64,000 nt of DNA, from the IMG/VR virus record IMGVR_UViG_3300032116_015770; one strand, written 5' to 3'. Under the pieces are notes generated by a model, which worked only from the letters and a program-made list of their open reading frames with translations, searched no databases and was not told the origin of the DNA. This DNA comes from a virus. The position numbers and the translations under genes were made by a program. This document shows, in pieces, positions 18,934 to 26,235 of the stretch. How positions within the stretch are numbered: position 1 is the stretch's first letter; every line of letters starts with the position of its first letter.

Positions 18934-19807
18934 TTATTCGCAGGTAGTGATTTCTAACCTCATGGCTGAAATTGGTAATAGGCGTGGGGAAGATATCGGT
19001 TTGGATGTCGGGTTACTTCGACATATGATCATCAATACTATTCGAAGCTTAAAACAAAAATTCGAAGGTAATTATGGTGAATTAGTTATTGCTTGCGACA
19101 ATAAGAACTACTGGCGTAAAAAAGTATTTCCGTATTATAAAGCTAATCGTAAAAAAGCTAGAGAAGAATCTGGCTTAGATTGGCCTATGATCTTTGAAAC
19201 TATTAATCTCATTAAAGAAGAAGTAAAGACATTTTTTCCCTACAAAGTAATAGAAGTAGAGACCGCTGAAGCAGATGACATTATAGCTACATTAGTTAAA
19301 TGGTCAGAAGAGAATGACTTAGGGGAAGGTATGTTTCCTGAACCTAAACCTTTGCTGATTTTATCGGGTGATCACGACTTTATTCAACTACAGAAATTTA
19401 AACACGTTAAACAGTTTTCACCTGTAACTAAGAAGTTTATTTCGTCTGAAATCACCCCTGAAAAATACCTATTTGAGCATATTATTAGGGGTGATAAGGG
19501 TGACGGTATTCCTAACGTTCTTTCTGATGATACTTCTATAGTTGAAAATGAACGTCAGAAGAAGATAATGCAAGTTAAATTAGATCAATGGTTTAGTGAT
19601 TCGAGTACTTTGCCTCAAGATGAGAATTTTAAACGTAATTTTGATCGTAATAAAGCATTAGTAGATCTCACAAGAATACCAGATGATCTACAAAACACTA
19701 TTATAAATACGTTTGTAAATACACCTACTAGAGGTAGAGAGTTACTTCTAGATTATTTTATCAAGAATAAGATGAAACTTATGATTGAACATATTGAGGA
19801 ATTTTAA
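18920..19807 (+). CDS. rnh: T4 RNase H (5'-3' exonuclease, FEN family)
   Basis: IILDYSQ, YWRK...YYKANRKK, EADDIIA, SGDHDF.QL, GDKGDGIPN; TTG start at 18920 after GAGG. Confidence 0.93.
   Translation: MIILDYSQVVISNLMAEIGNRRGEDIGLDVGLLRHMIINTIRSLKQKFEGNYGELVIACDNKNYWRKKVFPYYKANRKKAREESGLDWPMIFETINLIKEEVKTFFPYKVIEVETAEADDIIATLVKWSEENDLGEGMFPEPKPLLILSGDHDFIQLQKFKHVKQFSPVTKKFISSEITPEKYLFEHIIRGDKGDGIPNVLSDDTSIVENERQKKIMQVKLDQWFSDSSTLPQDENFKRNFDRNKALVDLTRIPDDLQNTIINTFVNTPTRGRELLLDYFIKNKMKLMIEHIEEF
19702..19709 (+). promoter_or_regulatory. T4-type late promoter TATAAATA inside the rnh 3' end
   Basis: Perfect consensus about 100 nt before ATG 19807. Confidence 0.55.
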
Positions 19808-25501: not shown

Positions 25502-25693
25502 ATGATAATTTGCTCCTGTAGAAATATACGTGAATCAGACTTTCCAGATAAAGATAAATTAATTTTACGTCTGTATGAGGATGACGCGCAATGTAGGGTT
25601 TGTTTAGAGAATATCGATAGGTACAAGAGTAAACCGAATACGTTTATGGGTGCTTGGGCTTACTATAGTTTAAACAAAGAGTTTAGTAAATAA
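25502..25693 (+). CDS. Bfd-like [2Fe-2S] ferredoxin
   Basis: MIICSCRNI...CRVC matches the Bfd CxC...CxxC ligand pattern. Confidence 0.65.
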   Translation: MIICSCRNIRESDFPDKDKLILRLYEDDAQCRVCLENIDRYKSKPNTFMGAWAYYSLNKEFSK

Positions 25694-25696
25694 ATA
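25689..25696 (+). promoter_or_regulatory. Late promoter AATAAATA for the tmRNA precursor
   Basis: Predicted +1 near 25702, at the apparent start of the acceptor piece. Confidence 0.55.
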
Positions 25697-25701
25697 TTTT
25701 T

Positions 25702-26056
25702 AATTGTTGTATGATGCAAACTGAAAAGGGTTCTGGACGCGGGTTCGACTCCCGCCTGGTCCACCAAAAGGAGATTGTATGCCAGTAGATATGTACTACT
25801 ATACTGAGAGTGAATGGAATCGTTTAGGGTGTGGACCTCTTCCACCTGAACGAGATATTCGTAATAAGGTAAAGTCTTCTTTTGAGGGGCCAGACATGGT
25901 TTCGACAGGGTCAAGAGTAGGGGAGTGGACAACACGTCAGGCGATCGACGTTAATGAAGCAAATAAGTAATCGCAAATGACGAGTACTACGCTCTAGCAG
26001 CTTAAATTGCTAGATGGGGTTTCGGTAGCTGTCCTTATTACCCAATCAGCTACCTT
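25702..26056 (+). ncRNA. ssrA: Circularly permuted two-piece tmRNA (acceptor piece ~25702-25766, intervening segment 25767-25886, coding piece 25887-~26056); tag ANDEYYALAA
   Basis: T-arm GCGGG-TTCGACT-CCCGC plus CTGGTCC-ACCA precedes GGGCCAG-ACATGGTTTCGAC; 7-bp acceptor stem with G3.U70; tag frame 25973-26005. Outer ends approximate. Confidence 0.93.
25779..25970 (+). CDS. ORF starting in the tmRNA intervening segment
   Basis: SD AGGAG 25769-25773 and ATG 25779; reads through the 5' end of the coding piece. Confidence 0.4.
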   Translation: MPVDMYYYTESEWNRLGCGPLPPERDIRNKVKSSFEGPDMVSTGSRVGEWTTRQAIDVNEANK

Positions 26057-26076
26057 AATGATTTTCAGTACGGTAG

Positions 26077-26084
26077 TATAAATA
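26077..26084 (+). promoter_or_regulatory. T4-type late promoter TATAAATA upstream of pqqA
   Basis: Perfect consensus, intergenic. Confidence 0.7.
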
Positions 26085-26160
26085 ATATTTTAGTAGATTC
26101 ACTTCATATGTTCAATAGATAATATGGACCGGCAATAGTGCCGCCATAAAGGAGAAAAAT

Positions 26161-26235
26161 ATGAAGTGGACTACACCTGCAGCTCAAGATATGCGTTTTG
26201 GTTTTGAAATTACCATGTATATCGCTAATCGATAA
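26161..26235 (+). CDS. pqqA: Pyrroloquinoline quinone precursor peptide PqqA (24 aa, not in ORF track)
   Basis: MKWTTPAAQDMRFGFEITMYIANR*, with W..P leader and E-x-x-x-Y core; SD AAAGGAG 26148-26154. Confidence 0.95.
   Translation: MKWTTPAAQDMRFGFEITMYIANR

Follow-up and report, generated by a model that had tools for sequence, protein, structure and literature searches.

We describe a small-protein gene nested in the intervening segment (spacer) of a permuted tmRNA gene in a phage genome, and we consider it probable that the unprocessed pre-tmRNA serves as the messenger of this gene, which would make it a dual-function RNA. Sequence comparison shows that the gene is real, that a protein family stands behind it, and that its nesting, its phase at the processing site and the stem that encloses it are conserved. 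The locus lies in a window of 64,000 nucleotides from IMG/VR virus record IMGVR_UViG_3300032116_015770; it belongs to a viral record that is complete, has a length of 165,076 bp and bears terminal repeats.

The tmRNA locus and its nested gene

ARAGORN predicts a permuted tmRNA at 25674-26096 (+) with the tag ANDEYYALAA, and two Rfam covariance models match above threshold (RF04321 at 139.8 bits, gathering cutoff 47; RF01850 at 137.4 bits, gathering cutoff 84). An acceptor piece (T arm, 3' acceptor strand and CCA) is followed by the spacer and then by the coding piece, which is the order of a permuted tmRNA gene; the type is beta (RF01850). Pairing of GGGCCAG with CUGGUCC gives the G3-U70 pair of alanine identity, and the tag ends in ALAA. 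Judged from its sequence, the permuted tmRNA is functional-looking, with two-piece processing and trans-translation activity predicted; a search of the phage genome for a phage-encoded SmpB found none. The features of the locus are as follows.

25689..25696, +: AATAAATA box, T4-type late-promoter-like (read from the sequence)
25705..25766, +: tmRNA acceptor piece (RF04321/RF01850 alignments, ARAGORN and fold)
25739-25755, +: T arm
25756-25762, +: acceptor 3' strand, CUGGUCC
25763-25766, +: ACCA
25765..25776, +: closing-stem 5' strand, 12 bp (MFE fold)
25767..25886, +: intervening segment (spacer), 120 nt, between the encoded CCA and the 5' acceptor strand, removed on maturation
25769..25773, +: Shine-Dalgarno (SD) sequence AGGAG, 5 nt before the ATG, doubling as closing-stem 5' strand
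25779..25970, +: ORF of 63 codons plus TAA (start ATG 25779, TAA 25968-25970)
25794..25853, +: conserved protein core, Y6 to R25, YYYTESEWNRLGCGPLPPER ((nearly) invariant columns in alignments A1 and A2)
25873..25884, +: closing-stem 3' strand, also encoding K-S-S-F-E, the last codons before the cut (MFE fold)
25886/25887, +: predicted RNase P site, at the first base of the acceptor stem and between codons 36 and 37 (phase 0)
25887..26096, +: tmRNA coding piece (ARAGORN, Rfam)
25887-25893, +: 5' acceptor strand, GGGCCAG
25973, +: resume codon GCA
25973-26005, +: tag frame, ANDEYYALAA and then a stop

The AATAAATA box stands 8 nt upstream of the first tmRNA model position and may serve the pre-tmRNA as a promoter; related loci have the same ATAAATA box ahead of their pre-tmRNA. 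From tRNA-like geometry, RNase P is predicted to cut at 25886/25887. A preliminary description of the locus had held that AGGAG and ATG 25779 open a 120-nt spacer, that the predicted cut falls directly after codon 36 with no stop before it, and that in the uncut precursor the ORF ends 2 nt before the resume codon, and the sequence agrees on each count. Codons 1 to 36 come from the spacer, which contributes no stop, and the last base of codon 36 is position 25886, exactly at the predicted site. Codons 37 to 63 run through the tRNA-like 5' half and the stretch up to the resume codon, with the TAA ending 2 nt ahead of the GCA.

In the MFE fold of positions 25730-25910, the T arm and the 7-bp acceptor stem are followed by a 2x2 loop and a 12-bp stem that holds the SD. 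This fold has a z-score of -3.27, and none of 200 shuffled sequences folds equally well. The earlier view that the SD is buried in a helix extending the acceptor stem is thereby borne out, with 12 bp in that place (25765-25776 with 25873-25884); the SD itself lies 3 nt from the CCA end of the acceptor piece. The closing stem is kept in the window's relatives, with one compensatory change from A-U to U-A.

For codon-level comparison, the window DNA was aligned with three lineages carrying the nested gene (L173-175, L176-178, and L122-126). The differences concentrate at third codon positions (10 of 14 relative to L173, 20 of 29 relative to L176, and 19 of 27 relative to L122), and the third-position substitution bias across relatives is significant at p = 2e-7. 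Over codons 1 to 27, L176 differs from the window by 18 synonymous and 2 non-synonymous changes, and the synonymous swaps include CGT/AGA (Arg) and CTT/CTG/TTA (Leu). Where synonymous sites are unsaturated, dN/dS is 0.08-0.11. The SD, its spacing and the ATG are invariant in these comparisons, and four lineages retain SD, ATG and reading frame; the related lineages share ancestry, and their counts are not independent trials. A fourth lineage besides the three aligned ones, L218, is more distant and combines this SD-ATG layout with a different T arm. Codon-level conservation in the spacers of relatives had been proposed as the check on the ORF, and the peptide, the SD and the ATG are indeed retained with a clear codon signature. 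Because relatives differ almost solely at third codon positions, these alignments confirm the spacer ORF as a real small-protein gene under strong purifying selection.

The phage is judged to be a T4-like myophage on the basis of the genes that flank the locus (gp32, gp59, the gp33 coactivator, a PD-(D/E)XK nuclease and a 2OG oxygenase), a weak DNA similarity to OM43 phage Melnitz and pelagiphage Mosig, and its RNA-gene content of 25 tRNAs and one tmRNA. The best DNA matches of the window come from freshwater and lake metagenomes. Two other small ORFs adjoin the tmRNA gene. Directly upstream is a 63-codon ORF (25502-25693, +) with a CxC...CxxC pattern, whose stop overlaps the AATAAATA box and which has no match in Pfam or NCBIfam. 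Right after the tmRNA lies a stand-alone pqqA, encoding the PQQ precursor peptide (24 codons, 26161-26235, +; TIGR02107 at 39.1 bits, cut-off 20), with a T4-type late-promoter box, TATAAATA, ahead of it at 26077-26084. No pqqB-E genes were found near pqqA, and the lone pqqA hints at a methylotroph host. Over the whole window, TATAAATA occurs 4 times against 13.7 expected from shuffles, a scarcity that fits a reserved late-promoter signal.

Elsewhere in the phage genome, outside the window, three ORFs contain the 5' end of a tRNA. One of 118 codons (G000:C1 18703-19138) reaches its first stop only after tRNA-Met (19058-19132); one of 138 codons (G000:C1 733-1158) stops 3 codons inside tRNA-Trp (1149-1224); and one of 79 codons (G000:C1 162852-163100) stops 3 codons inside tRNA-Asn (163091-163166). 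With tRNA 5' ends inside the reading frames, RNase P cleavage would leave all three ORFs stop-less.

The protein family and its genomic settings

The nested protein belongs to what its sequence indicates is a previously undescribed phage protein family, seen in metagenomes only. Its members have in common a core formed by the 25 N-terminal residues, YY-x3-EW-x-RLG-x-GPLPPER, followed by variable tails. Residues E12, W13, R15, L16, G17, G19, L21, P22, and R25 are invariant in the core (alignments A1 and A2), and the window protein has all of them. Protein searches returned six clusters with the same nested arrangement as the window and many stand-alone homologs that share only the N-terminal core; these measure 46-67 residues in the first protein search and 46-142 aa over all searches. 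A profile search retrieved 53 clusters at 50% identity among 1.84 billion representatives; two long profile matches to the family were spurious. No match to the family was found in Pfam, PHROGs, NCBIfam, PDB sequences, or the ESM Atlas, nor in a tblastn search with both family forms of 50,697 GenBank (cultured) phage records. A search for fused, longer forms of the protein was negative, and a metagenome scan turned up no further lineage of the family. In AF2 (AlphaFold) models, the core reaches a pLDDT of 72-87 and forms two short helices, and the tmRNA-encoded tail, at about 50, is predicted to be disordered.

The core motif was used to collect 51 viral loci, 44 of which are stand-alone genes with ordinary stop codons and longer conserved C-termini. 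In about 26 of these 44, the gene comes directly after a tRNA, which is tRNA-Met in every case except L170 (tRNA-Ala). Such tRNA-linked genes start 13-20 nt past the CCA end of the tRNA, behind a TAAATA box. A permuted tmRNA follows 120-1080 nt downstream on the same strand in 21 of the 44, a count to be read with several of the other stand-alone loci being cut by contig ends. The synteny of L127-L170 exemplifies this order: tRNA-Met, TAAATA box, small gene, and then the permuted tmRNA 120-1080 nt on. The window's phage genome has no second copy of the gene; its sole copy is the nested one.

A second nested architecture, in which the reading frame is threaded through the tmRNA gene, was found at L071, L171, L172, L195, L204, and L225 and in 48 protein clusters, the protein-database matches being biased towards intact ORFs. 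In this threaded form, no start codon lies in the spacer. The frame opens instead at a GTG or ATG located 4-7 nt after the ATAAATA box, at the 5' end of the pre-tmRNA, runs across the acceptor piece (...TCC ACC AAA...), continues through a spacer that encodes the same core, and then passes the cut. Threaded ORFs span 69-102 codons (for example, L071:3855-4088), and many indels in their spacers are multiples of three. Since the threaded ORF has mature tmRNA sequence on both sides of the spacer, it can be encoded by the uncut precursor only, and its layout suggests near-leaderless translation of the tmRNA precursor. Two clusters depart from the pattern: in P0043 the frame shifts after the cut, and in P0065 the open frame is kept with the conserved core lost.

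Spacer ORFs across phage tmRNAs

To separate what is specific to this family from what is generic, we surveyed phage permuted tmRNAs, sampled by the T arm only, which gave 58 non-redundant spacers of at least 40 nt. In eleven of the 58, an SD and an ATG 10-14 nt past the CCA lead a spacer-filling ORF; shuffles produce 0.36 such spacers, with a maximum of 3. When an SD-like word is present in the stem strand, an ATG-led, spacer-filling ORF accompanies it in 11 of 12 spacers, as opposed to 4 of 46 spacers without the word (Fisher p = 7e-8). Spacer genes are thus, on this survey, a general habit of these phages.

The individual cases are diverse. An SD and ATG 10-14 nt past the CCA, with an ORF filling a stem-closed spacer, are found in L003, L009, L020, L038, L047/L073/L111, and L090. 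The viral contigs L047, L111, and L073, with spacers of 87-89 nt, encode an unrelated family of hydrophobic peptides of 23-24 residues (M-N/D-...-ALVLL), and their ORFs are SD-led, begin at an ATG 13-14 nt past the CCA, and end in a stop 1 nt short of the RNase P site. Further unrelated SD-led, spacer-filling ORFs, of 38-71 codons, occur in L009/L108, L003, L020, L038, L078, and L090; the one in L009/L108 is Cys-rich and, like the window ORF, crosses the cut in phase 0. Several of the other spacer ORFs are hydrophobic, whereas the window protein looks soluble, belongs to a different family, is encoded through a stop-free spacer, and has stand-alone homologs.

Some features stressed in the preliminary description proved to be generic or variable, although all of them are present in the window. 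Closing stems beyond the acceptor stem have a median of 12 pairs in spacers with and without an ORF alike, so the stem is best described, on this comparison, as a standard precursor architecture into which the SD was written rather than one that evolved for this gene. The distance from stop to resume codon varies: in relatives, the ORF ends either 7 nt short of the resume codon or, in another frame, three codons beyond it. The stop in the window, with its gap of 2 nt, is the UAA/UAG that tmRNAs usually have at -5 to -3. An open phase-0 frame after the cut is likewise common in tmRNAs (median of 17 codons; at least 19 codons in 26 of 66), and its length therefore does not separate the models considered below.

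What does set the family apart from other spacer ORFs, as far as these sequences indicate, is stop-free, in-phase passage across the cut. The stop falls 1 nt ahead of the cut in 7 of the 11 surveyed spacer ORFs. In the SD-led lineages of the family, a UGA stands at that same position (-4 to -2) but out of frame; the nested members, about 10 lineages, all reach the cut in phase 0 without meeting a stop. In addition, at least four indels arose independently downstream of the core, each with a length divisible by three.

These surveys also bear on the reading in which the AGGAG is merely a stem strand and the open frame an accident. A generic closing stem and the frequency of open frames after the cut are what such an accident would draw on. 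They are opposed by the third-position bias with its dN/dS of about 0.1, by the existence of homologous stand-alone genes, by the excess of SD-led, spacer-filling ORFs over shuffles, and by the co-occurrence of the SD word with such ORFs, on which the stem-strand-only alternative named at the outset as the refutation was not upheld. A chance ORF is already contradicted by the comparative sequence data, and we assign it almost no remaining probability.

Probable translation of the precursor and its possible bearing on trans-translation

In the scheme that we infer, which extends to the promoter, the RNase P site, the sequence of steps, the length of the product and its function, the pre-tmRNA would be translated before it is processed. 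Ribosomes would load at AGGAG/ATG 25779 cotranscriptionally, while the complementary strand, some 100 nt further on, has yet to be made. Staying in phase, they would pass the position at which RNase P later cuts and terminate at the UAA shortly ahead of the resume codon, releasing a product of 63 residues; its last 27 residues, read from tmRNA sequence, would be unstructured. Formation of the closing and acceptor stems would then occlude the SD, and the RNA would be processed into the two tmRNA pieces. As folding both hides the SD and leads to processing, translation and maturation would be mutually exclusive for any one molecule. Any molecule that RNase P cuts with a ribosome still on its spacer would necessarily become a stop-less template. 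RNase P processing is often fast, which would tip the balance away from full-length translation and towards such templates. The functional product of 63 aa is also putative, since the tail is predicted to be disordered, is dictated by the RNA, and ends at a variable stop. Contigs from RNA runs matched only the conserved tmRNA parts of relatives with other spacers.

Stop-less templates could alternatively be the purpose of the arrangement. The preliminary description had suggested either a switch between translation and tmRNA maturation or an excised spacer that acts as a built-in tmRNA substrate; the comparative data are compatible with both ideas and fit translation of the uncut precursor equally well. 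In the substrate version, by analogy with the rescue factors ArfA and BrfA, the cut pre-tmRNA or the excised spacer would be a stop-less mRNA for a 36-residue peptide. Trans-translation would tag this peptide (...SSFE-AANDEYYALAA) and have it destroyed; when rescue is short, untagged peptide would accumulate and act, and its level would report trans-translation capacity. The constant phase 0 and missing stop at the predicted cut in about 10 nested lineages speak for such a design, as does the contrast with the 7 of 11 other spacer ORFs that stop 1 nt before the cut, where the UGA is here skipped by the frame. The conserved core is encoded in full ahead of the cut, the tail is predicted to lack structure, and the three tRNA-overlapping ORFs of the same phage genome would fall into the same pattern. 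There is also a precedent in the E. coli arfA mRNA, in which an RNase III cut yields a stop-less message whose product is under tmRNA control (PMC3989581).

The likeness to arfA would consist of a small ORF that crosses an RNA-processing site, a predicted one in the window, of a processed message left stop-less, and of a direct logical link to trans-translation. The two differ in that the nuclease here would be RNase P, acting at a predicted cut inside the tmRNA gene itself, in that the uncut RNA has an in-frame stop, and in that the present case, which shares no sequence similarity with arfA, is known from sequence alone. Searches against Pfam, NCBIfam, and PDB gave no similarity of the spacer protein to ArfA or any other known rescue factor. 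Moreover, the stand-alone homologs, with their ordinary stops and longer conserved C-termini, indicate that the family needs no stop-less mRNA; threaded spacers have no start codon, so that an excised spacer cannot be the template there; and the conserved phase may reflect descent. On balance, a design built around stop-less messages seems unlikely. The more specific proposal that an RNase P-made stop-less message constitutes an ArfA-like sensor or rescue modulator built into the tmRNA gene is, in our estimate, quite unlikely.

The switch version places the function in the act of translation. A ribosome on the SD would hold the closing and acceptor stems open and delay both RNase P and 3' processing, so that tmRNA output would rise when free ribosomes are scarce and the peptide would be secondary. 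The geometry is suggestive: the closing stem, which adjoins the acceptor stem, is made up of the SD and the five codons that end at the cut, the SD is close to the CCA end, and a ribosome crossing 25887-25893 would have to unwind the acceptor stem. Strong purifying selection on the peptide, and its occurrence as a stand-alone gene in many phages, would be unexpected if only translating mattered, and a closing stem that is equally strong without ORFs did not evolve as a riboswitch for this one. We hold this version to be very improbable and prefer the reading of the unprocessed pre-tmRNA as the messenger of a selected nested gene.

Genes within removable segments of stable RNAs have been described in other settings. 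ORFs of the S23p type (Pfam PF05635) occur in 23S rRNA intervening sequences of Leptospira and Coxiella. LAGLIDADG genes sit in group I introns of tmRNA genes (PMC11915505). As in these cases, a segment removed from a stable RNA carries a translated gene, but the host RNA, the excision route (RNase III or self-splicing), and the proteins differ, so the analogy is one of arrangement only; the spacer protein has no match to S23p (PF05635) in Pfam. Closer in genomic terms are OM43 phage Melnitz and the pelagimyophages, aquatic T4-like myophages with a two-piece tmRNA, for which a glutamine riboswitch and an alpha-type tmRNA are reported and no spacer gene is described (PMC9004378). The present phage resembles them as an aquatic T4-like phage with a two-piece ssrA near the late-transcription coactivator gene, but its tmRNA is beta-type and its spacer is coding. 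A 2025 tmRNA database paper covering 97,179 sequences lists only tRNA-Ala and a repeat element inside permuted-tmRNA spacers, and we found no description of a protein gene in such a spacer in the literature searched, which lay mostly outside subscription journals.

tmRNA spacers, which are treated as disposable, can therefore hold a strongly selected gene, and proteins of this kind will escape any annotation pipeline in which RNA genes are masked. If the pre-tmRNA is a dual-function RNA, its translation and its maturation must compete. The spacer protein is a candidate for a phage-encoded factor in ribosome rescue. Its family sits beside or inside tmRNA genes in many uncultured aquatic phages, and, should the sensor reading be true, this constant position would stem from direct involvement in trans-translation. 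The locus offers a natural system for asking whether RNA processing makes stop-less messages that are under trans-translation control.
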